A DNA stretch of 63,470 nucleotides, filler included, from Psammoneis japonica (GCA_008632985.1; 3 parts of 3 records of this genome joined end to end with filler, not necessarily neighbours in it); one strand, 5' to 3'; counted from the first letter of the whole stretch, positions 1 to 63,470 are shown. Notes: a model not told the origin generated them from the sequence alone. Made by a program: numbers and translations.

Positions 1-2028
1 GTCTTTTCAAGGAAAACAAACGTGTCGTTTCAAGGAAAACAAACGTGTCGTTTCAAGGAAAACAAACATGTTTTTTCAAGGAAACCAAACATGTCTTTTC
101 AAGGAAAACAAATGTGTTGTTTCAGGGAAAACAAACATGTGGTTTCAGAGAAAACAAACATGTCTTTCAAGGAAAACAAACATGTCGTTTCAAGAAAAAC
201 AAACGTGTCGTTTCAAAGAAAACAAACATGTTTTTTCAAGGAAAACAAACGTGTCTTTTCAAGGAAAACAAACGTGTCGTTTCAGGGAAAACAAACATGT
301 CGTTTAAAGACAAACATGTTGTTTCAAAGAAAACAAACACATCTTTTCAAGGACAACAAACATGTCGTTTCAAGAAAAACAAAGGTGTCGTTTCAAGGAA
401 AACAAACACATCTTTTCAGAGAAAATCAAGGTGTCATTTCAAGAAAAACAAACATGTGGTTTCAAGGAAAACAAACGTGTCATTTCAAGGAAAACAAACA
501 TGTCTTTTGGAGGAAAACAAACATGTCTTTTCAAGGAAAACAAACATGTCATTTCAAGGAAAACAAACATGTCTTTTCAGAGAAAACAAACGTGTCATTT
601 CAAGGAAAACAAAACAAACGTGTCGTTTCAGGGAAAACAAACATGTGGTTTCAAGGAAAACAAACATGTCTTTTCAAGGAAAACAAACATGTCTTTTCAA
701 GAAAAACAAACATGTCGTTTCAAAGAAAACAAACATGTCTTTTCAAGGAAAACAAATGTGACGTTTCAAGGAAAACAAACATGTCTTTTCAAGGAAACAA
801 ATCATGTCTTTTCAATGAAAACAAGCGTGTCGTTTCAAGGAAAACAAACATGTCATTTCAAAGAAAACAAACATGTTGTTTCAAGGAAAACAAACATGTG
901 TTTTCAAGGAAAACAAACATGTGCTTTCAAGGAAAGCAAACATGTCGTTTCATGGAAAACAAGCACGTCTTTTCAAAGAAAACAAACATGTCTTTTCAAG
1001 GAAAACAAACGTGTCTTTTCAAGGAAAACAAACGTGTCATTTCAAGGAAAACAAACATGTCTTTTCAAGGAAAACAAACATGTTTTTTCATGGAAAACAA
1101 GCGTGTCTTTTCAAGAAAAACAAATGTGTTGTTTCGGGGAAAACAAACATGTGGTTTCAGAGAAAACAAACATGTCTTTTCAAGGAAAACAAACATGTCG
1201 TTTCAAGAAAAACAAACNNNNNNNNNNNNNNNNNNNNNNNNNNNNNNNNNNNNNNNNNNNNNNNNNNNNNNNNNNNNNNNNNNNNNNNNNNNNNNNNNNN
1301 NNNNNNNNNNNNNNNNNNNNNNNNNNNNNNNNNNNNNNNNNNNNNNNNNNNNNNNNNNNNNNNNNNNNNNNNNNNNNNNNNNNNNNNNNNNNNNNNNNNN
1401 NNNNNNNNNNNNNNNNNNNNNNNNNNNNNNNNNNNNNNNNNNNNNNNNNNNNNNNNNNNNNNNNNNNNNNNNNNNNNNNNNNNNNNNNNNNNNNNNNNNN
1501 NNNNNNNNNNNNNNNNNNNNNNNNNNNNNNNNNNNNNNNNNNNNNNNNNNNNNNNNNNNNNNNNNNNNNNNNNNNNNNNNNNNNNNNNNNNNNNNNNNNN
1601 NNNNNNNNNNNNNNNNNNNNNNNNNNNNNNNNNNNNNNNNNNNNNNNNNNNNNNNNNNNNNNNNNNNNNNNNNNNNNNNNNNNNNNNNNNNNNNNNNNNN
1701 NNNNNNNNNNNNNNNNNNNNNNNNNNNNNNNNNNNNNNNNNNNNNNNNNNNNNNNTTTCAAGGAGAACAAACATGTCGTTTCAAGGAAAACAAGCATGTC
1801 TTTTCAAGGAAAACAATTGTGTCTTTTCAAGGAAAATAAACGTGTCGTTTCAGGGAAAACAAACATGTGGTTTCAAGGAAAACAAACATGTCTTTTCAAG
1901 GAAAACAAACATGTGTTTTCAAGAAAAACAAATGTGCTGTTTCAGGGAAAACAAACATGTAGTTTCAAGGAAAACAAACATGTTGTTTCAAGGAAAACAA
2001 GCATGTCTGTTCAAGGAAAACAAGCGTG
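1..2028 (+). repeat. 23-bp tandem satellite (consensus ~TCTTTTCAAGGAAAACAAACATG), N gap at 1218-1755
   Basis: The unit repeats continuously with CATG/CGTG/CACG and TCT/TCG/TCA/TGG variants. The periodic 'FQGKQTC/FKENKHV/SRKTNM' ORFs are translations of it. Confidence 0.97.
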
Positions 2029-2404
2029 CCATGCCCACCATCACATCGGCGCTGCAACACCAACAGAGCCACATTGATGTTGTTGCATTCGCCGCTGTGG
2101 CAGAACCGCCATGGTGGGTGATGCCTTCCATTGTCCAACTCATTTTTGGATCCATTCATGTGCTTGCTGTCGATGCTGCTGCTTCTGCTGCTGCAATTTG
2201 ACCACATTCATGCCGGTTGCTGTTGTTGCGCTGTTTGAGACATTGCAGCTGTGAATGTGCTTTGAATTGCAGAAGGGGGGCACGGAAGAGATGCAGGTGA
2301 GCTTGTTTTCAGCATCAAAGCAAGTTGCGTTGCTGTCTCTTCCGTTGTCATTTGTTGCTCAACACCCAAACCTCTGCATGCGCGCTGGCTCATGTTCTTT
2401 TCTT

Positions 2405-5400
2405 GCATCAGAGTTCATTGAGATTGCCGCTGAAGTCGCGCGAGAGAGTCAGAAACACCGTGAAGAAAGAGATGCACGGATCGCAGAACTCGAGCCAGAA
2501 TGCACGAAACAGTCGAAGGCGAAAGCCCGAATGCCACAAAACCAATGCTGCACCGAAGAAACCAAACGAGTCTTTCGGAAAATCAATGCGTGCAAAAAGT
2601 CAGAAAACTCCAGTGTGCAAACTGTTCAAATTCCAGCAGATCCTCGAGATGACTCAAAGACATGTGAGAATTGGACAACGACAGACGCTCCAGACAACGT
2701 CGAATCTGCACTTCAGCACTGCAATCAACGCCATTTCGGGCAGGCACACGGAACTCCTCCCACGGTTCCTGTCTTGTCAAATCCAATGATGGAGATTTCA
2801 CGTGCATCCAGGAAGACTTCGCCAACCAGCGACGACGATTGCACTTCTTGCCACGACAGGAACATTCCAGCAATTGTCGGATTGTGTGCGAAGAGCAATG
2901 GCATGCATGAAAGAGCAGTCAAAGTCAACATGGCGACTTTGCATCACGCGCGCCACTGGCTGCACACTCTTCTGGGACTCGCCAAACGATGTTGTTCTCA
3001 TTCCTCTGAGTGTCCTTTGTGTGGAACAGGACAAGGCAGTGGAAATTCTCCCTGGCACTGGAACACTCTGTGCAGCAGACTCTTTGATGTTTTCGATGCA
3101 GAAGCTGTCGGATCACATTTCGAAACCCCGGACGGACAGTTTTGCATTTGAGTTTTCAACCGAGGACATGTCGACGACACTTCCAAGCAAGTGAACGACT
3201 TTAGAGCCAGCCCTCAGCCTTCTGCTTTCGAGTTGTCTCAATCTCTACAATCGGACAACCAGTTGTGGTGTGATCCACTGGATGCGGCCGGGCACAAACC
3301 AGAATTGCCAAAATGTTCTTTCCACACCATCGAGTGGGACTTCACGGAATGTGGCGAACCATGCATCCGCCCTCACCACGATGACATCGAAGTGGAAATC
3401 TTTTCTGCAGATCGTTCTGCTTCCAGGTGCAGCACGCAATTGTCTGCATGTGCGCCTCACAAAACCTTGGGACACTGCATGGCTCCGACAGGCACACAGA
3501 AGACTCAACTGAAGAAGTTGCTCCACAAGAGCAATGCAGTCTCCCCATTTGTCCAATCATGTCCTTTGGACAGAAGAGAAACATGGCGGTGCCATTGTGC
3601 TTGTCATTTATCTTCGATGACATGCGCGCTGGCAAATTCAAACTTCCTCCCCAAAGAACTCCAACAGGTCCAACAGAAGGCCATGCGGACGATTTTTGCC
3701 AAATGCGGACACAACAGGAACACCAAACAAGCAATCTTGTGTGGACCGCAAATCCCTTGGAGGAGGCGGGTTTCGATCACTGGACGTCAAGCAAGGAGTG
3801 GCCCAACTGCAACAATCGTTGAAGCACTCGAGAGGGGTCAAACACTTGCAGCTCGGGGAGGACCAACCGCACAAGCTTCTTCACATTGCCGCAGCGTGGA
3901 TCCAACTGAACTTGGGAACTGGCGAGAGTTTCTTGTGGGACGTCGACACCGCATTGCCTCATGTGGAATCTAGATGGCTCGCATCTGTTGGGCTGTTTTT
4001 ACAGCAGATCAAAGGCCGGGTGTTTCTGCGCCACAACGGGGTCCTTCCACTTCAACGAGACAACGACCAGTGCTTGATGGATGTTGCTTTGCATTCCCAG
4101 TCCTTTGCCGCACGAGAGATCCGGTGGCCAAACTGTTGCCGTCTGCACCTGAAAGTCTTGTCTGTTTCAGATGTTGCTCTGTCGGATGGAATGACGCTGG
4201 ATGGGTCAAAAGCACAAGGGGAACCGTCATTGCAGAGCAGTGTCGGTGCACTCAACAACATCGAGCAGTGCAAGCCATGCCAGCGAGCATGGAAAGTCTG
4301 GAAGAAATTTTGTCCAGCCCTGTGCCATCCGAAGTCACTGCGCTTGAAGGAACCCCCAGGAGATTGGCTTCTGCCACCATCCCAGATGAGAGTGCAGTCA
4401 ACTGCGTGCTTTTCTCCATCTGAGGAACACTTGCATGTGCGCTCTCCAACCGGCTGTGACACATTTCAAGCAAACAGGACCATCGCTGATTCTGTCAGAG
4501 AGATGGAGACTGCACCACATCCTTCCGATTCTTCTTGTCCAGTTGAGGTGTCTACCATCAAGGATGGACGATGGCATTTTGAGATCCCGCGCACTTCATC
4601 AACCGCTTTCCACTCTCCGACCACTCCAGATTCCTTTCTGTCGCATCTTCAGGGACTCGACAAGTGGGAATCTGTGCCATTTGAAGACTTGGTCTTTCAT
4701 GTTTCTCCACGAACAGTGGTTCGACACTTTCTTTCGTCTCATCTCACCGCAGGCAGTGATGGATCGGTCCAAGAAGGAGCCACCTTTGGGTGGACCATTG
4801 CCATGGATGGTGCACCACCAGTGGATCATGCAGGGCCAGTTTTTGGGAAGACTCCGTCCTCTCACCACGCAGAAGCTTGCGGCATTCCATCCATTGCAAG
4901 ATTCATCTGCCGGCTGTGCGAATGCTGCCGCGTTGCCGTTCCTTTGGGTGCAGTGATTCATTGCAATGACAAAGCACTGGCTGACTGTTTGTCTGAATTG
5001 ACTCCCATCCTGCCGGTGAGTGATCCCGAGAACAACGCACGCGAACAACACGACTTTCACATTCGCTGCCATGGGTCCAACGCTGTCGCTCCGGATTGGG
5101 ACATTTTGAATGAGATCCTCCACACCCAGCAAGCTTTGACGCAACTGTCGGATGCAGCCGATCTCGCTCTGCCTCCAGTGCGATGGGTGAAAGGACATCA
5201 AGACAGGCAATCTCCCGTCCACTCATTGCCGTTAAATGCCAGAGTTAACATCCGAGCGGACAAATTGGCAGGAGCTTGCCAAGGACATTGCCTGCACGAC
5301 ACGAATCAGGTCAAGCACCTGCCACATTGCCGCTCGCATCTGGAGATCAACGGGGGTGCAATCACGACGAATTGCAAGAAACAAATTCGGTGCACTGCTG

Positions 5401-5921
5401 CTGCTCCTGAATTGATGCAACATGTTGTTGAACGGAACAAATGGGATCCTTCAGTGGTTGACCTTGTCAACTGGAATGCTCGCGCGGTTCTGGTGAAACG
5501 TCACTCACAACAGCATGTTGACACAGTCAAACTGGTCCATGACTTGCTGCTGACTGATCTCTTGGAGACTGCACCACATCCTTCCGATTCTTCTTGTCCA
5601 GTTGAGGTGTCCACCATCAAGGATGGACGATGGCATTTTGAGATCCTGCGCACTTCATCAACCGCTTTCCACTCTCCGACCACTCCAGATTCCTTTCTGT
5701 CGCATCTTCAGGGACTCGACAAGTGGGAATCTGTGCCATTTGAAGACTTGGTCTTTCTTGTTTCTCCACGAACAGTGGCTTGACACTTTCTTTCGTCTCA
5801 TCTCACCGCAGGCAGTGATGGATCGGTCCAAGAAGGAGCCACCTTTGGGTGGACCATTGCCATGGATGGTGCGCCACCAGCGGATCATGCAGGGCGAGTT
5901 TTTGGGAAGACTCCGTCCTCT
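2405..5921 (+). mobile_element. Non-LTR retrotransposon (Ambal-like LINE) ORF2 fragment, RT + RNase H, degenerate copy 1
   Basis: RT motifs CGTGQGSGNSP and GHVDD, then 'FAKCG..LCGP..LGGGGF'; RNase H motifs GSDGS, SSHHAEACG, WVKGHQD and NIRADKLA. It lacks ~610 bp at 2779 relative to the copy at 8389-8997, and 5563-5921 re-duplicates ~4505-4862. Confidence 0.88.
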
Positions 5922-6584
5922 CAGAGTGCGCGAAATGCCAAAAATGTGTGGATTTGCATGATGACAATTTGTCAAAATGTTGCAAAAAATTGTTGTTGCA
6001 CAATGACACTCCAACCTCTGGTTGCAAGTTTGCTGTGCCAATGTCGCGACAACTTGTTGAGAATCATGTGTGCCATTTTTCACTGTGCCCACATCGCCAT
6101 TTCTGCCTCCACCTTGTTGCCATGTGCCAATCCATGATTGCACTGCCGCGCAATCCTTGGTTTGTCAATTTTTGCAAACAGGGGTGTGATCACAGAACCA
6201 CTTGCGTGCCTGCTTGTTCCTTCGTTTGCTGCCAGCGACAGTGTCTGGGCCAAGCGGATCCCATGTCGGCACAATCGGGATGTCTTTCTTTTCATTCTTG
6301 TCATGGCTTGACTTTTTCCTGCCTTGCTTTTTCCTCTTGACTGCCGCCTTGAGTTTCTTTTCTTTTTCCTTTCCCTCTTCCTTGGCGACAACGCCTGCAC
6401 AGAAAAAGCATCACCGTCATCTTCTTGTGAGATGCGCGCAACTCTTGAGTCACACACATTGGTCACCCAACTTACGGGCCATTGCCTCCGCCCCAGCAGC
6501 CGAGCACACCGTGTTTCTGAGATTGTCTACTTGCCTTTTTGCCGCCTTTTTTGCCCATTCCTCCCAAGTTCCTGACCAATTTGA
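5922..6584 (-). repeat. Inverted copy of the block at ~13943-14604 (and ~22699-23360)
   Basis: Near-identical reverse complement; the same ORF translations recur on the opposite strand (e.g. 5849..6340+ vs 14186..14578-). Confidence 0.9.
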
Positions 6585-7632
6585 GGAAAACAAACGTGTC
6601 GTTTCAAGGAAAACAAACACGTGGTTTCAAGGAAAACAAACATGTCGTTTAAAGAAAAACAAACATGTCGTTTCAAAAAAAACAAACATGTCTTTTCAAG
6701 GAAAACAAGCACATCGTTTCAAGGAAAACAAACGCGTTGTTTCAAGGAAAACAAACATGCATTTTCAGAGAAAAAAAAAATGTCTTTTCAAGAAAAAACA
6801 AACATGTTCAAATGTGGGTGCAGCTGAAGCACAAAACAACTCATCTTGTGTGGCCCACAAACTCTTGGCGGTGGTGGGTTTTGACCGCCAGATGTCAAAC
6901 AAGGAGTTGCTCAATTGTGGGCACTGCTCAAGCATTCCAGAGGCATCACACATCTTCATCTGGGAGAGGGTCAACCCCACAAATTGCTGCACATTGCAGT
7001 CTCATGGATCCAACTGCACTTGGGGACAGGCGCAAGCTTCTTGTGGGGCGCAGATGCTGTTCTCCTGCACATGGAATCGTGTTGGTTTGCTTCCGTCAGT
7101 GCGCTCTTGCACAGAATTCAAGGCACACTCATGTTGTTTCAAGAAAAACAAACACGTCATTTCAAAAAAAAATGTCATGGGAAAACAAGCTTGTCTTTTG
7201 AAGGAAAACAAACGCGTCGTTTCAAAGAAAACAAACATGTTGCTTCAAAGTCATCTCAACAAACATGTCGTTTCAAGGAAAACAAACATGTCTTTTCAAG
7301 GAAAACAAACGTGTGTTTTCAAGGAAAACAAACACGTGGTTTCAAGGAAAACAAACACGTGGTTTCAAGGAGAACAAACATGTCATTTCAAGGAAAACAA
7401 GCGTGTCTTTTCAAGGAAAACAATTGTGTCTTTTCAAGGAAAACAAATGTGTCGTTTCAGGGAAAACAAACATGTGGTTTCAAGGAAAACAAACATGTCT
7501 TTTCAAGGAAAACAAACATGTGTTTTCAAGAAAAACAAACATGCTGTTTCAGGGAAAACAAACATGTCGTTTCAAGGAAAACAAACATGTTGTTTCAAGG
7601 AAAACAAGCGTGTCTTTTCAAGGAAAACAAGC
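6585..7632 (+). repeat. 23-bp satellite arrays (6585-6808, 7131-7632) flanking a LINE fragment
   Basis: Same unit as 1-2028. Confidence 0.95.
6805..7130 (+). mobile_element. Short fragment of a diverged LINE subfamily embedded in satellite
   Basis: Translates FKCGCS*STKQLILCGPQTLGGGGF...QPHKLLHIAVSWIQLHLGTG, homologous to but clearly diverged from 3700-4020. Confidence 0.85.
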
Positions 7633-8009
7633 GTGCCATGCCCACCATCACATCGGCGCTGCAACACCAACAGAGCCACATTGATGTTGTTGCATTCGCC
7701 GCTGTGGCAGAACCGCCATGGTGGGTGATGCCTTCCATTGTCCAACTCATTTTTGGATCCATTCATGTGCTTGCTGTCGATGCTGCTGCTTCTGCTGCTG
7801 CAATTTGACCACGTTCATGCCGCTGCTGTTGTTGCCGCTGTTTGAGACATTGCAGCTGTGAGTGTGCTTTGAATTGCAGAAGGGGGGCACGGAAGAGATG
7901 CAGGTGAGCTTGTTTTCAGCATCAAAGCAAGTTGCGTTGCTGTCTCTTCCATTGTCATTTGTTGCTCAACACCCAAACCTCTGCATGCGCGCTGGCTCAT
8001 GTTCTTTTC

Positions 8010-11000
8010 TTGCGTCAGAGTTCATTGAGATTGCCGCTGAAGTCGCGCGAGAGAGTCAGAAACACCGTGAAGAAGAAAGAGATGCACGGATCGCAGAACT
8101 CGAGCCAGATTGCACGAAACAGTCGAAGGCGAAAGCCCGAATGCTACGAAACCAACGCTGTGCCGAAGAAACCAAACGAGTCTTTCGGAAAATCAACGCG
8201 TGCAAAAAGTCAGAAAACTCCAGCGTGCAAACTGTTCAAATTCCAGCAGATCCTCGAGATGATCCCAAGACATGTGAGAATTGGACAACGACAGACGCTC
8301 CAGATGACGTCGAATCTGCACTTCAGCACTGCAATCAACGCCATTTCGGGCAGGCACATGGAACTCCTCCCACGGTTCCTGTCTTGTCAGTGGATCTCGG
8401 ATGTGAAGGAGATGCCATCATGGCTGACCTGATCTCAGACAGTGAGTGCGAAACGGAACAACTGAGCCGGGCTGCATCGTTGCTGATCCAGCATCTCCAA
8501 TGACGCACACCCCCAGCAGTTCCTGGCACCCTTTCTCCTGAAGCCCTGCAGTCAAAGATTGCATTGTGGTCTGAATCTGCCTCTGCATCATTGAAATCGG
8601 GGATTCATTTGGGGCATTGGAAAGCTGTGCATGCTCCTCATTCTCATGCATCTGATTGCGATGATGACGGGAATCCATCCGATCGGAAAGAACTGCTGGA
8701 TTCGGCTCAACAGACTCTTGTGGCAGTGCAGCTCAACTTGATCAATTGCACTCTGAAGTGGGGCTGCTCGTACGAACGGTGGAAAGACATTGTGAGTGTG
8801 ATGATTTTCAAAGAACCAGGCAACAACAAGATTCACAGATTGCGAGTGATTCATGTTTGCGAGGCAGATTTCCAATTGATTGCAAGCGTCAAGTGGCAAG
8901 AGTTGGCTCAAAAATGTGGAGCACCATCACATGTGCAACCCAGGGATCTACGGATGCAGATCATTCCTCTCCACTCAAACACCAGCCGTTTCTTGAAAAT
9001 CCAATGATGGAGATTTCACGCGCATCCAGGAAGACTTCGCCAACCAGCGACGACGATTGCACTTCTTGTCACGACAGGAACATTCCAGCAATTGTCGGAT
9101 TGTGTGCGAAGAGCGATGGCATGCACGAAAGAGCAGTCAAAGTCAACATGGCGACTTTGCATCACGCGCGCCACTGGCTGCGCACTCTTCTGGGACTCGC
9201 CCAACGATGTTGTTCTCATTCCTCTGAGTGTCCTTTGTGTGGAACAGGACAAGGCAGTGGAAATTCTCCCTGGCACTGGAACACTCTGTGCAGCAGACTC
9301 TTTGATGTTTTCGATGCAGAAGCTGTCGGATCACATTTCGAAACCCCGGACGGACAGTTTTGCATTTGAGTTTTCAACCGAGGACATGTCGACGACACTT
9401 CCAAGCAAGTGAACGACTTTAGAGCCAGCCCTCAGCCTTCTGCTTTCGAGTTGTCTCAATCTCTACAATCGGACGACCAGTTGTGGTGTGATCCACTGGA
9501 TGCGGCCGGGCACAAACCAGAATTGCCAAAATGTTCTTTCCACGCCATCGAGCGGGACTTCACGGAATGTGGCGAACCATGCATCCGCCCTCACCACGAT
9601 GACATCGAAGTGGAAATCTTTTCTGCAGATCATTCTGCTTCCAGGTGCAGCACGCAATTGTCTGCATGTGCGCCTCACAAAACCTTGGGACACTGCATGG
9701 CTCCGACAGGCACACAGAAGACTCAACTGAAGAAGTTGCTCCACAAGAGCAATGCAGTCTCCCCATTTGTCCAATCATGTCCTTTGGACAGAAGAGAAAC
9801 ATGGCAGTGCCATTGTGCTTGTCATTTATCTTCAATGACATGCGCGCTGGCAAATTCAAACTTCCTCCCCAAAGAACTCCAACAGGTCCAACAGAAGGCC
9901 ATGCGGACGATTTTTGCCAAATGCGGACACAACAGGAACACCAAACAAGCAATCTTGTGTGGACCGCAATCCCTCGGAGGAGGCGGGTTTTGATCACTGG
10001 ACGTCGAGCAAGGAGTGGCCCAACTGCAACAATTGTTGAAGCACTCGAGAGGGGTCAAACACTTGCAGCTCGGGGAGGACCAACCGCACAAGCTTCTTCA
10101 CATCGCCGCAGCGTGGATCCAACTGAACTTGGGAACTGGCGAGAGTTTCTTGTGGGACGTCGACACCGCATTGCCTCATGTGGAATCTAGATGGTTCGCA
10201 TCTGTTGGGCTGTTTTTACAGCAGATCAAAGGCCGGGTGTTTCTGCACCACAACGGGGTCCTTCCACTTCAACGAGACAACGACCAGTGCTTGATGGATG
10301 TTGCTTTGCATTCCCAGTCCTTTGCCCGCGAGAGATCGGTGGCCAAACTGTTGCCGTCTGCACCTGAAAGTCTTGTCTGTTTCAGATGTTGCTCTGTCGG
10401 ATGGAATGACGCTGGATGGGTCAAAAGCACAAGGGGAACCGTCATTGCAGAGCAGTGTTGGTGCACTCAACAACATCGAGCAGTGCAAGCCATGCCAGCG
10501 AGCATGGAAAGTCTGGAAGAAATTTTGTTCAGCCCTGTGCCATCCGAAGTCACTGCGCTTGAAGGAACCCCCAGGAGATTGGCTTCTGCCACCATCCCAG
10601 ATGAGAGTGCAGTCAACTGCGTGCTTTTCTCCATCCGAGGAACACTTGCATGTGCGCTCTCCAACTGGTTGTGACACATTTCAAGCAAACAGGACCATCG
10701 CTGATTCTGTCAGAGAGATGGAGACTGCACCACATCCTTCCGATTCTTCTTGTCCAGTTGAGGTGTCTGCCATCAAGGACGGACGATGGCATTTCCGAGA
10801 TCCCGCGCACTTCATCAACCGCTTTCCACTCTCCGACCACTCCAGATTCCTTTCTGTCGCATCTTCAGGGACTCGACAAGTGGGAATCTGTGCCATTTGA
10901 AGACTTGGTCTTTCATGTTTCTCCACGAACAGTGGCTCGACACTTTCTTTCGTCTCATCTCACCGCAGGCAGTGATGGATCGGTCCAAGAAGGAGCCACC

Positions 11001-47460: not shown

Positions 47461-47469
47461 TGGAAGAAA

Positions 47470-51973: not shown

Positions 51974-52731
51974 CAGGTAGTAAGTACAAAACAGTACAAT
52001 TAGAAAATATTATCAAACCATTGCCTACGCTGCAAATAGTTTGAAGGGAAGAAGCAAGCGAAATTCGATGAGATGAAACTCAATAAACTAGAAAGAACAA
52101 TCCACCCTGCAAGCAAAAACTTCAAGCCAAGCATGATGAAAGCTGATGGAAACAACTGAAGCATTCACTTGCACCGTTTTTTCTCCTGCGAGATCCATGC
52201 GCGACACGTGCCACAAACACCTGCAGTGCCATCTTTGCAGCAGACTTCCAGCACTGTAGTTTGCTTGGCCCTGTCTGTGCCAGCTGGGGCAGCTAAAGGG
52301 AGGCAGTGGCAAAAGTGACCCAGTGCCAGTCCTGAGGCAGCAAGCATGCTGGCAGCCTTGGCACAGCCACGAGCACCAGGGGAGCAAGCGAGGTGCCAGG
52401 GGCACTCCCACTTCCCGTGCAGTGGCACTGCCTGCCTGCCTGCACCCTTCCTCTTGCCAAGCCACTCTCAGCCTGGCTGCTTGTGTTTCTAAGTGGCAGT
52501 CGCAAGTCTCTCATTTAAGAACTCTTGGTCATGTTTGTGTCTCATGCCACCAGCAAATGGCATGAGTGTTGTCAACATTGATTTGTTGTGGTTGTTTGAT
52601 GGCATGCATTGGCACAGCACAGTTGCCAGCCACATGTGATGGGTTGTCATTTTGTTGTGCTGACCCACCAAAAAAGTGCAACAGATCATGTCAAAATGAA
52701 GTTGCCAAGCACAAGTGCCTTCTGTTGAGCC

Positions 52732-52736
<5 letters not shown>

Positions 52737-52767
<31 letters not shown>
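52737..52767 (+). repeat. (GA)n microsatellite
   Basis: Pure GA run. Confidence 0.95.
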
Positions 52768-52771
<4 letters not shown>

Positions 52772-52779
52772 TGCACCTT

Positions 52780-53990: not shown

Positions 53991-54716
53991 AAACAAATGC
54001 CTCTCAACAAACCCACCAGACAATGTGCGTTGCACTGCACAGAAAATTTTGGGGCCAGAGCTCTGGCTTGGCAACCCCATTGTGACAAGACATCTCTGGC
54101 AAAATGTTCAAAGTGGGTGAACCACAACAGCTGTGGAAAGGCACAATGGCCAACCCTCCCTGCTCACAACCCCTTTCAAACCTTTTGAGCCATGCTCAAC
54201 AATGCATTGACCTTGACCACATGATTGTCTGTTGCAGCCATTCTCTCACAACCTTGGAAATCTTCTTTCCTGCCACAAACTCTGCATCTCCCATGCCCCC
54301 CAGTTATGTCCTGTCAGATTGCAAATGGGGAGGCCACTGAGAGAGAGAGGGGGGGGCATGAGGCAGCGAACATGATGACAAAAATGATGGTCACACCATG
54401 AGGTCACACACAAAGCAGCACCTTTTGTTGCACTTGCTGCTCCTGACTTCTGCAATGATTGAGATGCTGAGAGGTGTGAGTGTGCTAAAAAATTGAAGGG
54501 AGATGTGTGGCGTCATTGTTTGGCACTGCTCATCAACACACCAGGCATGCAGCACACAGCACAGCAGCATGCTGAAACAAAAAACAGCAGGTCTTTGGCA
54601 GCTTGACAGCAAAAGCTGAGTCAACCATGATTGTGCAAAATCAAAATCCATGCAGAGCATGGCACTTGGCTGCTGTCAATGATTGTCAAAACCTGCCAAG
54701 AAACTGCCCCATTGTG

Positions 54717-54782
54717 TCTGTTAAGACAACACTCATTTTCTCCAGCTGGTCTGTTGAGACAACACTCATTTTCTCTGGCTGG
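54717..54782 (+). repeat. 33-bp tandem duplication
   Basis: TCTGTTAAGACAACACTCATTTTCTCCAGCTGG followed by TCTGTTGAGACAACACTCATTTTCTCTGGCTGG. Confidence 0.9.
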
Positions 54783-55342
54783 AGCCGTTGGGTCAATCAG
54801 CAAGGATGGGCTGACACACTGAGGCCAGTTTTTCTCTGGAGGTGTCATGGCCACATCAAAAAATTCCAGATGTGCCATGTTGCATGCATGCATTAATTGT
54901 CAAAACAAAAAGGTTGGCAAAAACAGGCCCGACTTTGTCCCACACCAGTTTGCACAGCTGCAGCATGATGCTGACACACAGGGTGCATTTGCTTGCACGA
55001 CCATGCAAGATTTTTGCATGGCAATGACTGTGAACATGTGCACAACCAGTCAAACTGTGGCCATTGGCATTTCCCAGGAAGTTCTGGCATGACCACCAAT
55101 TCAACCCTGAAGTGTGCAAATGAAAGAGATCTGCCAAGCCAAGTGCTGACTCTGAGAGCAGAGAAGGAGTGTCTCTGGCAGTGTGGCATGAGTGTGCTGC
55201 TGCTGCTCACAAAAAGAGCTGCACCTCAAGAGCCCACAGCAAAGGATTGGAAAGAGGAAGGACAGCAGGTGGGTCATGAAACACTCAGCATGCACCCAGC
55301 CACTGTGTGACAACAAATGACAACATGCAGTGGCTCTGGAGA

Positions 55343-55344
<2 letters not shown>

Positions 55345-55375
<31 letters not shown>
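55345..55375 (+). repeat. (GA)n microsatellite
   Basis: Pure GA run. Confidence 0.95.
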
Positions 55376-55378
<3 letters not shown>

Positions 55379-55693
55379 GAACCCCCCACTCAGTCACTTG
55401 ATGCAGGCAAGACAGTGAGGCAATGCAAAAGTGCATCACCAAGAGGAGACTGAAGTGGAGCAACTCTGTGGGCTGCCCTCAGTGTGAGGAGAATCGGCAA
55501 GGCCTGCCATAAAGGCAGAGTTCTAATGCTGGCAATCATTAAATCGAACGAGTGATCAAACCCAAAACCAAGCACCACTGTCCTTCCTTCTTTTCATCAA
55601 AACATTGCACTAGTTCTTTAATGGACTCTCGTAGTTCATTTTATTTGAGAACCGTTAACTGGGCGCACAATTTCATCTCGGCAACGAGTCGAC

Positions 55694-56935
55694 TCACGCC
55701 TTTGATCTGCTTGGCCCTCTGGAAAACAGTGGAGTCGAAACCTCTTCACCATCGTCTCTTTCAGGTGTCGTGTTGACGTTTGACATGCTTGAAGAAATTG
55801 TCTCCACGTGTTGAGCTAGTGCTTCTTGGTAAGTTTTCAGTCGAGTTTCGCCGATAAATAGTCGAAGCTGTAGTGCTTGAATTTTTTCTTCGCAGCTTTC
55901 CTTCTCTGTCTGCATGGCTCTCTTGTGCGCTATTTCCATATCAGCGAGTTTCTCATCTCTGTCTATTATAGCAAGTTTGAGCTGTCGAATCTGCTCTTCC
56001 AGGGCTTTGATGCGAGCAGAAGCCCGTTTCATATCAGAAGGGTCATGATGTGCAGAACGATCCGTTGTCGAAACATCCCCTGCAATCTCTGAGCGGCCGT
56101 CCCCAATTGTTGAACTTGTCATAAGCGATTCTTTCCAAGCCATCTCGCTTGACTTTGTGGGTCCGTCGTGATGTGTATCCCCTCCCCTGTTGGCATCTCC
56201 TAGTGCTGGTTTATCTTTTTCTGGCGCAATCGGCTTTGATGCAATCTCCCTCAGTTCATCCTCCATTTCGTTATCATCTCCATCGTTTTTCTTTATACCA
56301 CCGCTTACAACAGAGCTGGGTGTACACACAGGTTTCGAAGGCTGAGGCCGTTTCTTTGTAACCTCAATCCAAGAATCAGGTTGCTGCTCATTGTCGTGGC
56401 GTAGGACTCTGATGGGAGACAAAACACCGTGATCTTTTTCTGCTACTGGTGACAACGGCGGACTCTCGTCTGTATCTGTTGAAGCAGAATCGATACTACG
56501 CCGAAAATCTTCAATATTGCGACTTTGTTTTCGATTCTTCTTCGCCGCCTGTTCGTCTGCTTTTAGTGTCTCTTCTTTCATGAGTTTCTTTGCCATTGCA
56601 TTGGCTTTCTCCGTCATTACCGAATGTCGCTGAGCTACATCCCTGTCAATCACTTTCTGTGCCTTCTCACTTGGAATTAACGCGGGAGTAAGAACGTATG
56701 GGTTACAATCAGTGTCATTGGTATCCTGACTTGACTGGTACAGAGTCTGCAGCAGCTGAAATCGTTGCTCTTGAAGGCTGCTGAACGGCGGCTGGTTTCC
56801 GTTTGTCACCATGCCACAAATGTACACTAGGTGTTGTGAAATTCCCATGGCTTCTTGCTTTTCTGTCAGTGGTAAGCTCATACCAACCTTACCAGCACCC
56901 AAATCGTTCACCAAGGACTCTTCGACGATGTCCAT
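55694..56935 (-). CDS. Hypothetical protein, disordered middle and C-terminal coiled coil (may have an upstream exon)
   Basis: 413-aa ATG-initiated ORF with normal dinucleotide content; heptad region RIKALEEQIRQL...KIQALQLRLFIGETRLKTYQEAL. Confidence 0.75.
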   Translation of the reverse strand: MDIVEESLVNDLGAGKVGMSLPLTEKQEAMGISQHLVYICGMVTNGNQPPFSSLQEQRFQLLQTLYQSSQDTNDTDCNPYVLTPALIPSEKAQKVIDRDVAQRHSVMTEKANAMAKKLMKEETLKADEQAAKKNRKQSRNIEDFRRSIDSASTDTDESPPLSPVAEKDHGVLSPIRVLRHDNEQQPDSWIEVTKKRPQPSKPVCTPSSVVSGGIKKNDGDDNEMEDELREIASKPIAPEKDKPALGDANRGGDTHHDGPTKSSEMAWKESLMTSSTIGDGRSEIAGDVSTTDRSAHHDPSDMKRASARIKALEEQIRQLKLAIIDRDEKLADMEIAHKRAMQTEKESCEEKIQALQLRLFIGETRLKTYQEALAQHVETISSSMSNVNTTPERDDGEEVSTPLFSRGPSRSKA

Positions 56936-57085
56936 CGTTTACGTTGTTTGTCCCTGTCATCCATTGTCTTACCGCATCCATCTTCAATCTCAGATCTCGC
57001 AGTGGTGCGATCTGGGAGCTCGGACCTCGCCTTGAATCGGGATAGTAGCATAACCGCGATGCCAGAACATGCATGGATCAGGCAC

Positions 57086-57201
57086 AGGGCCCTCTCTACT
57101 CTCTAGAGAGTAGCTAGAGTAGAGTAGAGAGCGAGAGCTAGTACCTACTCTAGTAGGGCACACCAGAACGGAGATACTCTCTACTCTAGCTAGAGGGCCC
57201 T
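57086..57201. repeat. ~116-bp CTAG/GTAGA-rich hairpin (MITE-like)
   Basis: Inverted repeats at 57086-57095/57192-57201 and 57111-57124/57179-57192; perfect 18-bp palindrome at 57096-57113. Confidence 0.65.
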
Positions 57202-57320
57202 AGAGCTACATTGTTTGTACTGTTGCAGTGTTCTAGAGTCTACAAAGCTAGATCGCCTTAAGTGCTCATTTTTGAGTATGGCAAATCATAGGAGACATGA
57301 TTGGCTTCCTATTCGCGACG

Positions 57321-58757
57321 TCATTCTGGATTTGAGTTCTCCAACAGCTCCGCATAAGCCACCAAAATCCACAGGAAATCGGTCGCCAACTGCTTCCTGA
57401 CAAGCTTCCGTTTGCACCAGCGATTAGCATTTTCTATAATCTGTAGCACTTCCCTTGTATTGTTCTTGTCTAATGCATACTCCGTCACGTCAACCAAGTT
57501 TGAAAGATTTGCATGTACGGGTATGTAGTGTTTCCAAGGCACAAGCTCGGAATGAAAGTAGTCCACAAATTTCGGTCGCACCTTGATAATGACCGAATTG
57601 TAGCACAACAAATGACCAAATCTGCTACTCCAGGAGTTACCATCCATATCCACAATAGCCATGTACCTCATGAAGTCATCTTGATTCATTCTCTTTCGAA
57701 ACTGCACCTCCGTCGAGTTTAACATTTCGGCGTGCTCCTGCGGGTTGCGAGCTTTTGTAAATCCCACATTAAACAAGTCACGCCGTTGCATTCCATAATG
57801 TACAAGTTTAGCCCGCGGTAAATCTTTCCAGTGCCAATGGAATGGCCCTGTGGGCGATCCCCGCCATACGGCTCGCCGTTTCTTTTTTGACCATGGATAT
57901 TCTCGACGCCACGTTTGAAACTGCTTTTTCCATTCTGATGTAGAGTCTTTTGAGACCGCTTTTCTCCATAAATGATAAGATGGTATTGGCCAAACATTAG
58001 TGTCATTCCTGTCAATTTCGTCAAAGTGATTGAGCCAAGACAGAACGGGAACATTGTTTGGTATGTGATATGGAATTGCGTCTCCTTTGAATAGAATGAT
58101 GGGAAGCGCTTCCAAACTTGCGATTCGCCTTAAGCGAGCATTAGAAGACTGCCTTGCTAGCATCATCGCCATGTCTAACATTTGGTCAAAGGCATGTATC
58201 CGGCTTGTAACGCGGTTTTTGTACTTTAGCAACATGCTTTCCTTTGCTTTTGACTTGAAAATGGTGCCATTCTTTACAATGTAGGGTAAGGTATGAAGAT
58301 GATACCAGCACAACAAAATGTCTGGATTCGTCTCATCTTCTTCTGGAACTAGATTTTGGAACTGATCGAGACACTTGATGTTGTTGATTTCTGTTGCAAA
58401 GACGTCAGTCAGGGCTGAAACATTCATCCGTTGGTGGTGTGGCAATTCAAGATACCACGGATAACCTTGCGGTGGCGTGTCTTGTAGCTGCTGCTTCGTT
58501 TTGGAGTATGTAATTTTCAATGATTTCGCGTCTACACGTTGCTTCTCCTTGTTTTGAATGAGTGCAACTCCGTCTCGCGTCACGTCGTCATGACGAAAAA
58601 CTGCCAACTCGATGAAAAAGCTCCGCGAACTCAAGCACAAAACAACGAAAAGCGATGCCCATCGTACCGTAATTCTTGGATGTATCCGTAGATATCGAGT
58701 CTCATGGGGCATGTTGAAGCCGTTACTACTCGAAGAAGCTTGCTCGTTTCTCGTCAT
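57321..58757 (-). CDS. Glycosyltransferase family 90 (CAP10/KDELC/POGLUT-like), type II membrane protein
   Basis: N-terminal hydrophobic anchor; AVWRGSPTG, YMAIVDMDGNSWSSRF..LL, YFHSELVPWKHYIPV. First ATG at 58757. Confidence 0.9.
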   Translation of the reverse strand: MTRNEQASSSSNGFNMPHETRYLRIHPRITVRWASLFVVLCLSSRSFFIELAVFRHDDVTRDGVALIQNKEKQRVDAKSLKITYSKTKQQLQDTPPQGYPWYLELPHHQRMNVSALTDVFATEINNIKCLDQFQNLVPEEDETNPDILLCWYHLHTLPYIVKNGTIFKSKAKESMLLKYKNRVTSRIHAFDQMLDMAMMLARQSSNARLRRIASLEALPIILFKGDAIPYHIPNNVPVLSWLNHFDEIDRNDTNVWPIPSYHLWRKAVSKDSTSEWKKQFQTWRREYPWSKKKRRAVWRGSPTGPFHWHWKDLPRAKLVHYGMQRRDLFNVGFTKARNPQEHAEMLNSTEVQFRKRMNQDDFMRYMAIVDMDGNSWSSRFGHLLCYNSVIIKVRPKFVDYFHSELVPWKHYIPVHANLSNLVDVTEYALDKNNTREVLQIIENANRWCKRKLVRKQLATDFLWILVAYAELLENSNPE

Positions 58758-58999
58758 GGTCAACGCATCTTCAGCGATTTCGATTGAATGTTCAGCGACA
58801 CCGACGATACTACGAATTGCTGAACAATTGCGCGATACACGTGCCCGAACGGTGATTGTTGCAAGGTCTAACGAGATAAAGACTTCAGTGATAACAAAAT
58901 TGTGAGCGAAAGACCGAGGTAACGAGGGTCGCTTTCAGCGAAGCCCGTTACAACGGCTTCCGTTATATCTAATAGGTTCATTAATACTATATATCAGAA

Positions 59000-61900
59000 A
59001 AATAAGGTGCGAGACACTGCACTCTTCCCTTCCATGATTCGAGTGTCGAGAATCATGCGGGACTCAAAAAATTTAAATTCCAAAGGATAGAAGGGAAACC
59101 CAAATGTTGGGGAGAAAACCCTTAACCTCAGGTATGATACGGTACGACGCGACGTATATTCAATCGTTCTGTCACATGAGGTGTACGTTGGACCGTAAGT
59201 GTACCGTTGGCGTGTACTTGAACGATGGGATGTGGACCGTGAGCTCGTGGCTCGAGCTTGGTTGGGTCGACAGCCTTGAGTAGAACTTGTCCGCCAACTT
59301 GAAAATCGTAGGATCGGCGTTTAGCGTTGGCTCGACGGAGATTTGCATTAATGATCGCTTGTCGGTGTTCTTGAATGGCAGCAAGATCGGCTAGGACCGG
59401 CAAGTCAAGAATCATGTCACGTTGAAAAACCACAGCACCGGGTGAAATCTTGAGAGCACGAGAAACCGCACATCGCATTGCATGCATGGCGGTTGCCAAT
59501 GCATTGTCCACTAGTTGATTAGCCTGCTCAACATTCTGTGGAGGACAAACATGAAGCAAAGTGCGTAAGATGTTTCCAACAGTTTGATGCATGCGCTCGC
59601 ATGCCGCATTGGCTTGTGGGTTTCGCGACGCAGTCGGAGCGTCTTCCACTCCTGCTCGTTGCAATAACAATTGAAAGTCCTCTCCAATGAATTCTCCACC
59701 ATTATCATGGATACATCGGTCAGGTCGAGGACAACGAGACAACCAACAATTTTCAAATTGTTGAGCAATGTGAGACGAGGTTTTGTTGTCGATGCGAACA
59801 AGTTCAGTCACATTCGAAACGGTGTCAATGCAAGTCAAAGCGTTGAATTCGATTTCATGGTTTTGAATTTCAATTTTCCAGGGACCGATGAGGTCAACTG
59901 CAACTTCCGTCCATGGTGATAAAGGCGCTTCCCGTTCAGGTGGGTCCCCATTTCCTCGAGAGAAGGACAGTTCAAAAATGATTCACACAATTCGGGGTCG
60001 TCCACGACAGAAGAATAAAATGGAGATGGTTCTTCACGACGATAGGAAAAATGAGACACATTGTTTTGGTCGTCCAGTTCTTCTTCATGCGGCAGCACAG
60101 CAGGGTCGATCGTCTTAAAATCAATTAGCTTGCCCTTGTTAGGAGCACACTTCCCCTTCCGCAGGAGGGTCCATGTGTGGCAATCTTGAAAAACAATCCG
60201 CCAAAAGATTATCTTTGCCATCAATGTATTCGAAAGTTGGGGCAAAATCTTCCAAGAAGAGTCGCCACCTGAGAACTCGTTGAGAATTGAGCGTACGAAA
60301 GGTGAGATTTTTATGATCCGTAAAAACAGTGCAGTCAGCTCCAAATGACATGCTTCGAAATTCTTTGAAACACATTGCCACCGCCAATGATTCTTTTTCA
60401 ATCGTAGAGTAGTTCTGTTTGTGCTGCGCTGAGTTTCCGGGACCAGCAAGCTACTGGTTTCCCGTCTTGCATAATTGCGGCTCCCATCTGATGGTCCGAA
60501 GAGTCAGTGTAAACATGGAATGGCTTGTTGTGATTCGGGTAGACCCAAAGGGTGTCGTCCAGCATCAAGGTTTTCATATCTTCAAAGGCCCGTTGACATT
60601 CAGGGGTCCATTCCAACTTGCTCTTGCCTGTCAACTTCGTGAGTGGAGCGAGCACGTGTGAACGACGAGGCCACATGTTGCGACAATAAGTTGCCGCACC
60701 GACAAACGATTGTAGTTGCGTCATAGTTTTAGGTGGTTGCATTCGCAGCACCGCTTCCACTTTTTTCTTCCACGGTCGGACTCCTGCAGGCGTGAGCCAA
60801 TGGCCTAAAAAATCCGTCTCTTGGACACACCATTCGCACTTGAGTGGGTTAATTTTCAGATTGTTCTCTTCTAGTCTGGATAACAGCTCATCGAGTCGAC
60901 GCATGTGAGTGTCAAACGAATCATCAAATTGAGCAATGTCATCGATGTAAGTTTCAACATCGATTCCTTTTACCACTTTTTCAACAATGGCTTGAGCAAT
61001 GTCGGGAGAGGTTTTCAAACCCATGGCCCAATCGACAATGTCGAAATTTTCCAAACGGAGTGACAACAGCACACAAATCCTTGGATTCTTCGTCAAGCTC
61101 GACACGATGATAAAACACAGTGAGGTCCAACTTGGTCAAGTGCTTGCATCCCGAGCGTCGGTGAACAACATCTTGAATGATCGGCAGAGGATAGACCTTT
61201 CGTTTGAGTGCCTTGTTCAACTCTCGAAAATCGGACACCCATCGAACTCGTCCATCCTTTTTGGGAGTTGCAAAAGTTCCGGCTGCCCATTCAGTTGGTC
61301 CCACTGGTTCCAGTGCGCCAACATTACATGGATGTTGCAGTTCTTTCTTAAAAACGGCTTCATCCCTCTTGGATGCCTCATGAGCCTTAGAATGGAAGGG
61401 AACAGCGTCAGGATCAACTTCCAAGTGAACAGTCTCATGCAGATGTTTGCCAAGCGTTCCATCAAAGAGGGTTTCATGCTTTTCAAGCACTGCTTGTAAC
61501 TCATCACGTTGTTCTTGAGTCAAGTGAGTTTGAGCTTGCGCCACTTTCGCCGGATGACACTTTTTCGTGTTTGGCGTCCATCACAAAAGATTGTCCGAAG
61601 GTTTCATCATCGTCTTCGTCCTCTCCGTCGTCTTCCAGTGTATCCAACCAATTCTGAACTGAGTTCCAATGATTGGATTGCTTCATTGGGATTGACTTTT
61701 CCAACCACTTCATTGTTCCAAATCGAAAATCAAGCACGATCCCGGCTTTCGACAAAAAGTCTTGTCCCAAAATTAAATCACACTTGCATGGGGCATCAAA
61801 AACTTGAGCCGCAACACTGTCGACTTGTTTTGACTTGTCAAATTCTGGCAATGTCAAGTCTTTCACAATGACATGTCGGGAGGATTCACATCGTCCGGCT

Positions 61901-63470
61901 GCCGTCTGAAAGCTCAACCGTCCTTCATCGTTCATGGTTGGATTCGCTCCCTTCGGCAAAACTCGAGAATGAACAAGAGTGTCAGCACCTCCTGAATCCA
62001 ACAGTGCTCGCAACACTCGCTCACTCTCTTGATTTTGAATGGCACGCGCCGCCATCAACGTCGTTGGCACCACATTCAATGGCTCAGGAGTCGCAGTTTT
62101 AGGGGTTGGTGCAGCGCACTCCAAAACGCCGCCCAAATTTTCTTCATTCATGGTGTGAGATTCCATCAGGTCTCCCACATTGTCATCAACATTAAAACAT
62201 ACATTTTCTTCACAATCACACGAAACATAAAAAGATTGAGCGACACGCTCTGACTCGGGCACTTCCGTCCCTTGTCAATTACGCCAACTTCGTTGGCCTT
62301 GATGGGTGCGACCGTTCTGATCGCATCCATTTCCACCTCGCATCTCACGAGGCCCTCCTTGATCAAAAATGGTGCGACTCCATTTGCCAACCACCAGGAG
62401 GAGCTGCTCCAGCCGGATTTCCATAGCCTTGGGTGTCACCGTTGGCTTGGGTGCCGTTTTGATTTTGGCAATGGGATCCATTCCCTTGAGAATTTTGGGA
62501 GTTGTTACAATTGCCGTAACCTCGGCCTCCATGTCCTCCTTGATTGCCACAATTGCCACGTCCTCGACCTTGGAAGTTGCCACGACTGCCTCCACCTTGG
62601 GGTCCTCTACCTTGGCAGTTTCCTCGGCCTCCACCACGACCTCCGCTACGACCGCCACGGTCGGACCTCGGTCGACAGTTTTGGCTTTCTGGATTCAAAA
62701 TACAATCCTTCCACTTGTGGTCGTGATTCGCATGCACCGGGCATCTAGATTCTGGATCCGTTCTACCACTGTTGCCACGAGAGCGTCTTGAAGCTTGAGA
62801 CGAAGCACTGTTGCTTTTCCTCTTCTTGTCCTGCTTTTTGTTGCCACTTTTGTCAGCAAAAGATTTCTCGTTGTTCACATGACTGATGATCTCAGCGAGA
62901 GTGTCGTTCGCTGTCGCTCGTCCTGCTCGAGCACACATCTCACACCACGGACGAGGAAAAGCTGTCGAATGTTGTCTTTTTCTTCTGAGCTTTGTTGACT
63001 TGAGGAGTGTTTCCTGGTAGTTTGTTGGAGTGCCGAATCAAGGTTTCCATGCGATCTGCATGCGCCTGTGCTTCAGATTTGAATGGTTTCTTCAAAGTTA
63101 GCAAATGTTCAATCATCGTATCACACGCTTCATTGTCACAATAAGACAAGTAAAAACGATTGATTTCCTGATCAAAACGCTCGACAGTTTTATCGGCATC
63201 GTCAATTGCATTGGTCAAGTTCGCCCACTTGTCCTCTGCAGCATCCGCAAGCACTTCCTCGAAATTTTCGAACAACTCCTCGCCAGCAGTGCACTCCAAT
63301 TTCACAGAAATTTTACGAAAACGATCCTCAACGAATAACAATGCTTCAATGCCATGAGTACCATCAAAACGCGGACACTTTTTTGTACGAGTGCTACCGT
63401 CATCATACGATTGGGTCAATTTCACTTCCTCCAAGTCAGAATGCTCAAATTTAGCTTCAGTATGCAAGGC
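59000..63470 (-). mobile_element. Ty3/gypsy LTR retrotransposon (gag, PR, RT, RNase H, IN), frameshifted; 5' end outside the window
   Basis: Gag with CPVH..HDHKWKDC; ALLDSGG; PKKDGRVRWVSDFRELNK; YIDD; VYTDSSD, FTDHKNL; IHDNGGEF, NPQAN..CERMH, GPH(Y). The integrase zinc-finger region is largely deleted at ~59900. Confidence 0.95.
59022..59033 (-). promoter_or_regulatory. Polypurine tract of the gypsy element, followed by the putative 3' LTR start (TG at 59021)
   Basis: Minus strand reads GGAAGGGAAGAG-TGCAGTG, ~95 bp after the integrase stop. Confidence 0.7.

Follow-up and report, generated by a model that had tools for sequence, protein, structure and literature searches.

The stretch of DNA analysed here (the window, 63,470 nucleotides at its full length) consists of three scaffolds, 1-23682, 23783-47469, and 47570-63470, which are joined by N44-TTAATTAATTAA-N44 spacers and thereby bear out the preliminary description of the stretch as three unlinked scaffolds. 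It holds two elements resembling long interspersed nuclear elements (LINEs), referred to as LINE-A and LINE-B, together with a transposase-like element, a Ty3/gypsy-like element, 23-bp satellite arrays, a telomere-like array, two unclassified blocks, and host genes. Most of this DNA outside the genes is nearly free of the dinucleotide TpA, and the present analysis concerns this depletion and the TpA>CpA/TpG hypermutation that probably underlies it. The evidence was drawn from the window itself, public protein and metagenome collections, the sequencing runs of one sample, and the literature.

TpA depletion of the non-genic and repeat DNA

In the whole window, 570 TpA were counted, compared with 3997 expected from base composition (observed-to-expected ratio [o/e] of 0.14), and the o/e values of CpA and TpG were 1.60 and 1.57, respectively. 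The TpA o/e was 0.00-0.1 in most 1-kb bins of 1-49000 and 52001-55000. When the window was divided into three classes, the non-genic and repeat DNA (51,517 bases) contained 219 TpA against 3315 expected (o/e 0.07), whereas the o/e was 0.57 in the two host-gene blocks (5,548 bases) and 0.31 in the Ty3/gypsy-like element (58950-63470). An equally strong depletion of single-copy non-coding DNA had been named beforehand as the finding that would speak against a repeat-directed process; the window offers only a small amount of DNA of this type, in which this finding was not made, as the intergenic stretch 57070-57319 showed a TpA o/e of 1.43 in 250-bp bins.

The element-by-element counts agreed with those of the preliminary description. 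The first copy of LINE-A, comprising a reverse transcriptase (RT) and a C-terminal region (2029-5921, plus strand), contains exactly 8 TpA against 227 expected, and exactly 12 TpA against 206 expected are found in 52100-55500. The host genes bear TpA throughout, with 87 TpA (o/e 0.51) at 49667-51973 and 134 TpA (o/e 0.62) at 55694-58757. Tyrosine codons follow the same pattern: a stop-to-stop frame of 720 amino acids (aa) in LINE-A (3621-5780) encodes no Tyr and the 889-aa transposase-like frame (40835-43501) encodes 2, against 17 in the 537-aa frame of the host glycosyltransferase of family GT90. The motifs CGTGQG, VCEAD, and SHHAEACG, along with an RT-box-like HVDD, are carried by both copies of LINE-A, the second of which lies at 7363-11905 on the plus strand and is 96.8-98.4% identical to the first. 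These results indicate that the TpA depletion of the repeats in the window is real.

The edges of the depleted DNA were examined in 250-bp bins. At the left edge of the block between the host genes, the TpA o/e fell from 0.82 (51820-52069) to 0.26, 0.19, and 0 in the next bins, and past the right edge at 55570 it returned to 0.33-0.59. The boundaries between depleted and normal DNA each lie within one bin, with the genes at o/e 0.4-0.7 and intergenic DNA at 0.8-1.4. These profiles support the conclusion that the process is confined to non-genic and repeat DNA, with boundaries sharper than ~250 bp.

The block itself (52070-55570, no strand assigned) is one of two unclassified blocks with little TpA or CpG that flank the gene for an AMP-binding enzyme; the other (47570-49206, no strand assigned) lies upstream of this gene, and its 250-bp bins show a TpA o/e of 0-0.07. 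TpA is almost nil in the two blocks and their CpG o/e is 0-0.39. Neither block gave a Pfam match or any similarity to the remaining window.

In the repeat regions TAA and TAG have gone, and TGA is the sole remaining stop codon. Because of this, long open frames occur in all six reading frames, and 97 frames of at least 150 aa are present in the window. Most of the long frames in the repeats are not genes, which is a pitfall for gene callers.

Direction and strands of the change

The direction of the change was read from columns of protein alignments at which at least 60% of the homologues agree. For the transposase-like frame, which was aligned with 20 of its 22 homologues (two that covered less than 40% of the query were dropped), none of the 15 conserved Tyr columns still held Tyr, the residues now being 8 His, 5 Cys, and 2 Phe, whereas the other conserved columns were kept at 262 of 311 positions. 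The LINE-A frame at 2255-3970, in which one TGA was translated as X, has 1790 relatives at E<=0.001; its RT alignment was built from 36 of the best 150 relatives, taken from the top 45 and picked for a long matched stretch. In this alignment Tyr was kept at 0 of 10 columns (5 His, 4 Cys, and 1 Phe) and the other residues at 88 of 127. The corresponding values were 0/4 and 98/134 for the C-terminal region of LINE-A, and 0/5 and 48/64 for the LINE-B endonuclease. The LINE-B RT, which is less depleted, kept Tyr at 3 of 8 columns and the others at 145 of 185.

Overall, the 42 conserved Tyr columns in these five segments of three element families now hold 3 Tyr, 20 His (TAY>CAY), 16 Cys (TAY>TGY), and 3 Phe, whereas 641 of the 821 other conserved columns are kept. 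TpA is thus the ancestral, lost state, and the split between His and Cys shows a roughly equal attack on both strands. The direction read from the alignments is A:T>G:C, that is, TA>CA/TG.

The telomere-like array (23538-23682, plus strand) is located at the end of a scaffold and contains 15 GGGTTG-type and 4 GGGTCA units, but 0 GGGTTA units. The canonical telomere unit is TTAGGG, and GGGTTG and GGGTCA are each one step from GGGTTA at its TpA, which agrees with the direction seen in the alignments. The array stops at the scaffold end, so that these counts describe its proximal part, the distal telomere being outside the view.

The main 23-bp satellite array (1-2023, no strand assigned; period 23 and 53 copies by Tandem Repeats Finder; N gap at 1218-1755) has 1 TpA in bases 1-1000, and further arrays lie at 6584-6807, 7117-7640, 15484-16320, and 18040-18985. 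Most variation of the satellite unit concerns a single site, which reads CATG, CGTG, CACA, CACG, or CGCG; this ladder of pyrimidine-purine steps could have had either CpG or TpA as its ancestor.

Specificity for TpA and concurrent CpG decay

The other dinucleotides of A and T were not depleted in this way. The o/e values in repeats and genes were 1.29 and 1.14 for ApA, 1.32 and 1.07 for TpT, and 0.82 and 0.96 for ApT, respectively. These values speak against both a general A:T>G:C drift and the signature of a polymerase that errs at WA motifs. In contrast, CpG was reduced in the repeats (o/e 0.59, compared with 0.97 in the genes). With host-like values as the yardstick, the repeats lack 1661 TpA and 1158 CpG, 2819 in sum, and have a surplus of 1507 CpA and 1218 TpG, 2725 in sum. 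The close agreement of deficit and surplus indicates that two processes, CpG decay and TpA loss, feed CpA and TpG, with TpA loss accounting for ~59% of the dinucleotide deficit and CpG decay for ~41% (1158/2819). The TpA and CpG o/e values were correlated over the window (Spearman 0.50, 57 bins), and the correlation was weak within the repeat bins (rho 0.29, p 0.047).

The context of the residual TpA was counted in the most depleted 500-bp bins, which add up to 38.5 kb. Among the 95 residual TpA, 32 were in TTAA and 0 in ATAT, with CTAA/TTAG ranking after TTAA. The excess of TTAA may reflect either a preference of an enzyme or a faster re-creation of TTAA.

Divergence of resident copies

Copies within the window were compared pairwise from BLAST alignments. 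In the pairs with at least 90% identity, the 265 difference events comprised 140 CpG transitions, 38 CA-versus-TG doubles, 16 exchanges between TpA and CpA/TpG, 41 other transitions, and 30 transversions. This dominance of CpG among the recent differences suggests that the process, in saturated regions, is short of substrate or has stopped. For LINE-A, which matches endonuclease and RT proteins of 1900-2100 aa, the comparison of 2779-5557 with 8997-11772 (98.4% identity) revealed 7 residual TpA common to both copies, 1 polymorphic TpA, and 0 discordant CA/TG sites, which indicates that LINE-A was duplicated after saturation.

LINE-B (28251-36703, plus strand) is partly depleted, with a TpA o/e of 0.15 in 28000-34200. 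It consists of an endonuclease (30648-31604; Pfam Exo_endo_phos, E 2.6e-11), an RT (32007-34225), and a 3' part (34205-36703), and shows 47% identity to a database relative (P0088) over 561 aa; like LINE-A, it is related to proteins of 1900-2100 aa. A copy of its 3' part lies upstream (25729-28250, plus strand) as a direct repeat with 96.2% identity to 34205-36703. Between the two 3' parts, 17 sites were discordant for CA versus TG, whereas 0.9 would be expected from a CpG-only model, and 4 sites are still TA in one of the copies. All 17 sites fall within 27414-28143 and 35890-36620, the last ~730 bases of the 2.5-kb alignment, with none in the first 1.7 kb. The excess over expectation indicates that the stretch 27414-28143 was converted independently in both copies after their separation, and the clustering suggests that conversion of a single element was uneven over time or space. 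Conversion therefore continued in resident copies.

When 17 rows of copy pairs were summed, 140 discordant sites were found against 50 expected from the simple CpG-only model, the rows not being independent, as one pair was present in both directions and several pairs had sequence in common. The sites concordant for CA or TG in duplicated copies numbered 513 and 537. No strand-coordinated runs of discordant CA/TG sites were detected in 5 copy pairs with 13-20 sites each (P for the observed number of runs or fewer, 0.21, 0.99, 0.97, 0.94, and 0.15).

Sequencing reads and copy number

The stretch was contained in three sequencing runs of one sample from one study, from which contigs were built with exact 31-letter words; no RNA run was listed as containing it. 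In run X1, the word depth over the genes was ~52-54.5. The X1 contigs covered 53277-55893 as four pieces, each of which differed from the window by 0-1 letters, and one contig (49637-52727) spanned the AMP-binding gene into the depleted block. Elsewhere X1 differed from the window, by 7 letters in 449 bases at 56154-56602 and by 7 in 56759-58809, and is thus not a copy of the assembly. The contigs of X1 and X2 also carried 1067 extra letters between 51754 and 51755, within the 3' part of the AMP-binding frame; this difference may be a strain indel, a mobile insertion, or an assembly collapse.

Copy number was estimated from the word depth summed over copies of at least 85% likeness, a range that old, diverged copies would escape. 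For the depleted block at 52.3-55.6 kb, the summed depth was mostly 49-81, with 210-264 at 53725-54654, compared with a gene baseline of 52-54.5; this block is thus mostly single-copy by depth. For the gypsy-like element it was 1500-3450, which is ~30-60 times the baseline of ~54. The strongest depletion in the window is thus not tied to present copy number, since a largely single-copy block is depleted and depletion is weakest in the most abundant family. The preliminary description of the process as repeat-restricted is thereby weakened: a confinement to non-genic and repeat DNA is supported, but a strict dependence on repetition was not confirmed at this range of likeness. The time that a sequence has resided in the genome would explain its depletion better than the number of its copies.

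Other features of the window

Searches of Pfam at E<=0.05 with 80 of the 97 frames of at least 150 aa recognised only the LINE-like endonuclease and the Ty3/gypsy-like protein, and homologue searches added the second LINE-like and the transposase-like families. No copia, Penelope, or DDE transposase domain was recognised by Pfam in a set of 15 and then in the 80 of these 97 frames. The list of affected repeats given in the preliminary description accordingly holds for elements of the LINE-like, gypsy-like, and transposase-like types and for both the satellite and the telomere-like array, whereas the copia and Penelope labels were not confirmed by Pfam. Hypermutated elements evade Pfam models, which affects annotation, and the element frames had no database match above 48% identity.

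The transposase-like element (40835-44202, plus strand) consists of the 889-aa frame and a 242-aa continuation, contains 14 TpA against 165 expected, and matches no Pfam model. The best of the 22 homologues of the 889-aa frame is 48% identical to it, with 97% of the query matched. In the family (P0065-P0086) 48 columns are invariant, among them a W-D-F-D-P block and positions with Cys or His; one cluster at 90% identity has 204 members on Mb-scale contigs, and one relative (P0083) bears a Tudor domain. At 11 metagenome loci of the family, the TpA o/e in the matched part was 0.34-0.94, compared with 0.085 for the window copy, which indicates that TpA loss is not intrinsic to the family. The locus of a distant relative (JAAUYE010008181.1, 1-2475) combines a CpG o/e of 0.00-0.01 with a normal TpA o/e of 0.55-0.59; dinucleotide decay has there reached another extreme, in which CpG is lost completely.

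The Ty3/gypsy-like element lies on the minus strand and has the order protease-RT-RNaseH-integrase (Pfam Asp_protease_2, RVT_1, RT_RNaseH_2, and rve). It is of high copy number and partly TpA-depleted, and its CpG is normal (o/e 0.96).

The host genes served as unaffected controls. The AMP-binding enzyme (49667-51973, plus strand; Pfam AMP-binding, E 2e-31) has 16 Tyr. The genes for a coiled-coil protein and the GT90 glycosyltransferase (55694-58934, minus strand; Pfam Glyco_transf_90, E 1e-24) have coding bins with a TpA o/e of 0.39-0.69. The best database matches of the host proteins show 44% identity for the AMP-binding enzyme and 34-43% for GT90, the best named relative being a diatom GT90 (35%), and no chlorarachniophyte name occurs among these best matches. 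In the two host genes, ~2 kb and 1.15 kb of coding DNA align to homologues uninterrupted, which would be unusual for the alga Bigelowiella natans, with which the window is compared below and which is intron-rich. Together with the low identities, this suggests that the window probably comes from an organism other than B. natans.

A proposed TpA-directed mutation process and its alternatives

The observations would be accounted for if the host genome were subject, now or until recently, to a mutation process at the DNA level that turns TpA into CpA or TpG, that is, A:T>G:C on either strand. Its targets would be transposons, the satellite, telomere-like repeats, and other non-genic blocks, with adjacent genes and single-copy intergenic DNA being spared. 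A nearly complete conversion would remove Tyr codons and TAA/TAG stops and so inactivate the elements. Targeting might proceed via silenced or methylated chromatin, as the CpG decay in the TpA-poor regions suggests, or via recognition of foreign DNA, rather than via present copy number. The chemistry could be the conversion of adenine to hypoxanthine in DNA by a deaminase like ADAT2/TadA; the natural target of such an enzyme in tRNA is A34, which is always preceded by U33. We consider the mutation process itself very probable and the explanation as a whole only slightly less so, and an ADAT2/TadA-like deaminase is the leading, though tentative, candidate for the agent.

A process of this kind has been reported in B. 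natans in a preprint (Mettrop et al., bioRxiv 10.64898/2026.01.13.699255, April 2026), the main text of which describes integrated viruses that undergo TpA>TpG/CpA hypermutation de novo. Of the 302 nuclear single-nucleotide mutations in mutation-accumulation lines, 231 were located in two integrated regions, one from a nucleocytoplasmic large DNA virus (NCLDV) and one from a virophage; 230 of these 231 were of the A>G or T>C type, each of the 230 being at TpA, with a rate of ~6e-7 per site per generation, in only some of the lines and in bursts of 0-45 per line (10.64898/2026.01.13.699255). The same source gives 324 coding sequences with a mean TpA frequency of 0.0018 and 124 TpA-poor clusters, finds the depleted coding sequences enriched in DDE-endonuclease and reverse-transcriptase domains, and proposes a defence role and an ADAT2-type adenine deaminase. 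ADAT2 of amphioxus is reported to edit DNA (PMC10354150; also via 10.64898/2026.01.13.699255).

Several other processes could leave a similar pattern. Editing of retroelement RNA from A to I by an ADAR-like enzyme, fixed by reverse transcription, would agree with the 5'-U preference of ADAR (10.64898/2026.01.13.699255) and with the fact that most classified elements of the window are retroelements. However, editing of the sense strand yields only TA>TG and thus Tyr>Cys, whereas 20 of the 36 His-or-Cys replacements are Tyr>His; the satellite, the telomere-like array, and the unclassified non-coding blocks are equally depleted, and resident copies came, once duplicated, to differ at sites that had been TpA. 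Editing of RNA intermediates is therefore inadequate, as had been argued from the first inspection, and we regard it as extremely improbable. DNA polymerase eta errs at A in WA motifs, and its recruitment to heterochromatin for error-prone repair had been put forward as a candidate for the A>G changes. This candidate fails on the ApA values, which are raised rather than lowered in the repeats; moreover, conserved Lys and Asn were kept at 12 of 21 and 12 of 15 columns in the transposase-like frame and at 3 of 6 and 4 of 4 in LINE-A, and the former Tyr codons show no transversion component except for 3 Phe. An error-prone polymerase of this type is thus very improbable. The preliminary proposal of a DNA-level A>G process on both strands, on the other hand, is borne out by the His and Cys replacements, the undepleted ApA, and the divergence of copies in place. 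An artefact of sequencing, base-calling, or assembly, or a modified base that was misread, would be easier to uphold given that the reads come from one sample and study, with neither an assembly platform nor a library type on record. Against this, X1 contigs at ~54x reproduced the depleted block and one of its boundaries with a gene, the substitutions and the 1067-letter insertion distinguish X1 from an assembly copy, and the 513 and 537 concordant CA/TG sites in duplicates are unlike random miscalls; an artefact is likewise highly improbable.

Two further alternatives retain the DNA-level process and differ in its chemistry. In some protists, base J and 5-hydroxymethyluracil (5hmU) are located at TpA of telomeres and repetitive DNA, and a TET/JBP-type dioxygenase might oxidise the thymine at TpA of silenced DNA to 5hmU or 5-formyluracil, which would mispair with G and give T>C. 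Because TpA is self-complementary, T>C and A>G on opposite strands look alike, and the sequence evidence fits both equally. A limited literature search on 5-hydroxymethyluracil, dinoflagellates, and TpA returned no report, and we consider attack on thymine unlikely. Very-short-patch repair is the bacterial analogue of the other alternative, in which a glycosylase or endonuclease that repairs T:G to C:G in heterochromatin, and so reverses the deamination of methylated CpA/CpG, would also 'correct' T:G mispairs from replication at true TpA and so drive TpA>CpA. The low CpG of the TpA-poor regions, its correlation with TpA over the window, and the predominance of CpG transitions among recent copies, which fits cytosine-methylated DNA, are in its favour. 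However, the correlation is weak within the repeats, the gypsy-like element has lost TpA with its CpG intact, and the bursts in B. natans suit an induced enzyme better (10.64898/2026.01.13.699255). Biased repair is therefore rated as distinctly unlikely.

Several points weigh against the proposed TpA-directed process. Depletion is weakest in the gypsy-like family, the one with the most copies, which does not agree with a simple repeat-induced trigger. The excess of CpA and TpG stems in part from ordinary CpG decay (1158 CpG missing beside 1661 TpA), and the latest duplicates differ mainly by CpG transitions (140/265), with TpA<->CpA/TpG exchanges making up only 16/265. The evidence for the process in the window comes entirely from standing sequence, at which level adenine deamination, thymine modification, and biased repair would be indistinguishable. 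Finally, X1 derives from the one study and sample, has no library type on record, and may represent the source material of the assembly or the same culture.

Significance

The known point-mutation genome defences act by C>T, as fungal repeat-induced point mutation (RIP) and through APOBEC in animals. For the reverse process, A:T>G:C at TpA, the one description to date is a 2026 preprint on a single alga, which presents it mainly for two integrated viruses. The window displays the end state, in which element families, a satellite, and a telomere-like array have been rewritten with sharp edges against genes. If the organism differs from B. natans, the process is not a single-species oddity, and a native TpA-specific DNA adenine editor could possibly be found by comparative genomics. 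The chances are about even that the window represents a second eukaryote, distant from B. natans, which uses the same TpA editing as a general, saturating silencer of all heterochromatin, including several classes of transposon, satellites, and repeats close to telomeres, beside cytosine methylation, with the context rule (ATAT converted, TTAA refractory) reflecting the specificity of the enzyme. In that case, 'reverse RIP' would be a widespread and ancient genome defence of marine protists rather than the peculiarity of one alga.

Comparison with known systems

Methylation-driven CpG decay of repeats also yields CpA and TpG and is active in the repeats of the window, but is unable to remove TpA. 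ADAR and APOBEC editing in animals resembles the pattern in producing context-dependent clusters of transitions in mobile elements, and ADAR prefers a 5' U. In contrast to the changes in the window, which affect both strands (20 His and 16 Cys) and non-retroelements as well, these enzymes act on RNA or reverse-transcription intermediates and on one strand, and the APOBEC changes are C>T.

RIP in Neurospora and other fungi shares with the process in the window its irreversibility, its dinucleotide specificity, its action on both strands, the inactivation of repeats, the sparing of genes, and the sharp edges. However, RIP consists of C>T changes mainly at CpA and creates TpA, whereas in the window the direction is reversed, TpA being destroyed and CpA/TpG being made. 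A dependence on duplication is not apparent in the window, where one depleted block is mostly at single-copy depth for copies of at least 85% likeness, and no strand-coordinated runs were found in the copy pairs compared.

The closest likeness is to B. natans. As described in the main text of the preprint, the changes in that alga are likewise only TpA>TpG/CpA, affect both strands, and form local blocks beside a normal genome as well as TpA-poor clusters rich in CpA and TpG (10.64898/2026.01.13.699255). Within a limited literature search, no other description of TpA>CpA/TpG hypermutation was found. The process in the window had been put forward as a candidate new system; that novelty does not hold, since the preprint already reports a process of this kind, including the transposon enrichment and the ADAT-type hypothesis. 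The two cases differ in several respects. De novo mutation was seen in the lines of B. natans, whereas the window is known from standing sequence, in which the 17 discordant sites between the 96%-identical LINE-B copies are an indirect sign of it. The footprint in the window extends over elements of several kinds (LINE-like, gypsy-like, and transposase-like) as well as the satellite and the telomere-like array, and the main text of the preprint carries no mention of telomeres or satellites. The window is also saturated, with an o/e of 0.07 compared with 0.45 for the NCLDV region of B. natans. Overall, these comparisons indicate that the process in the window is of the same kind as the TpA hypermutation of B. 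natans, and is a much more extreme example of it.

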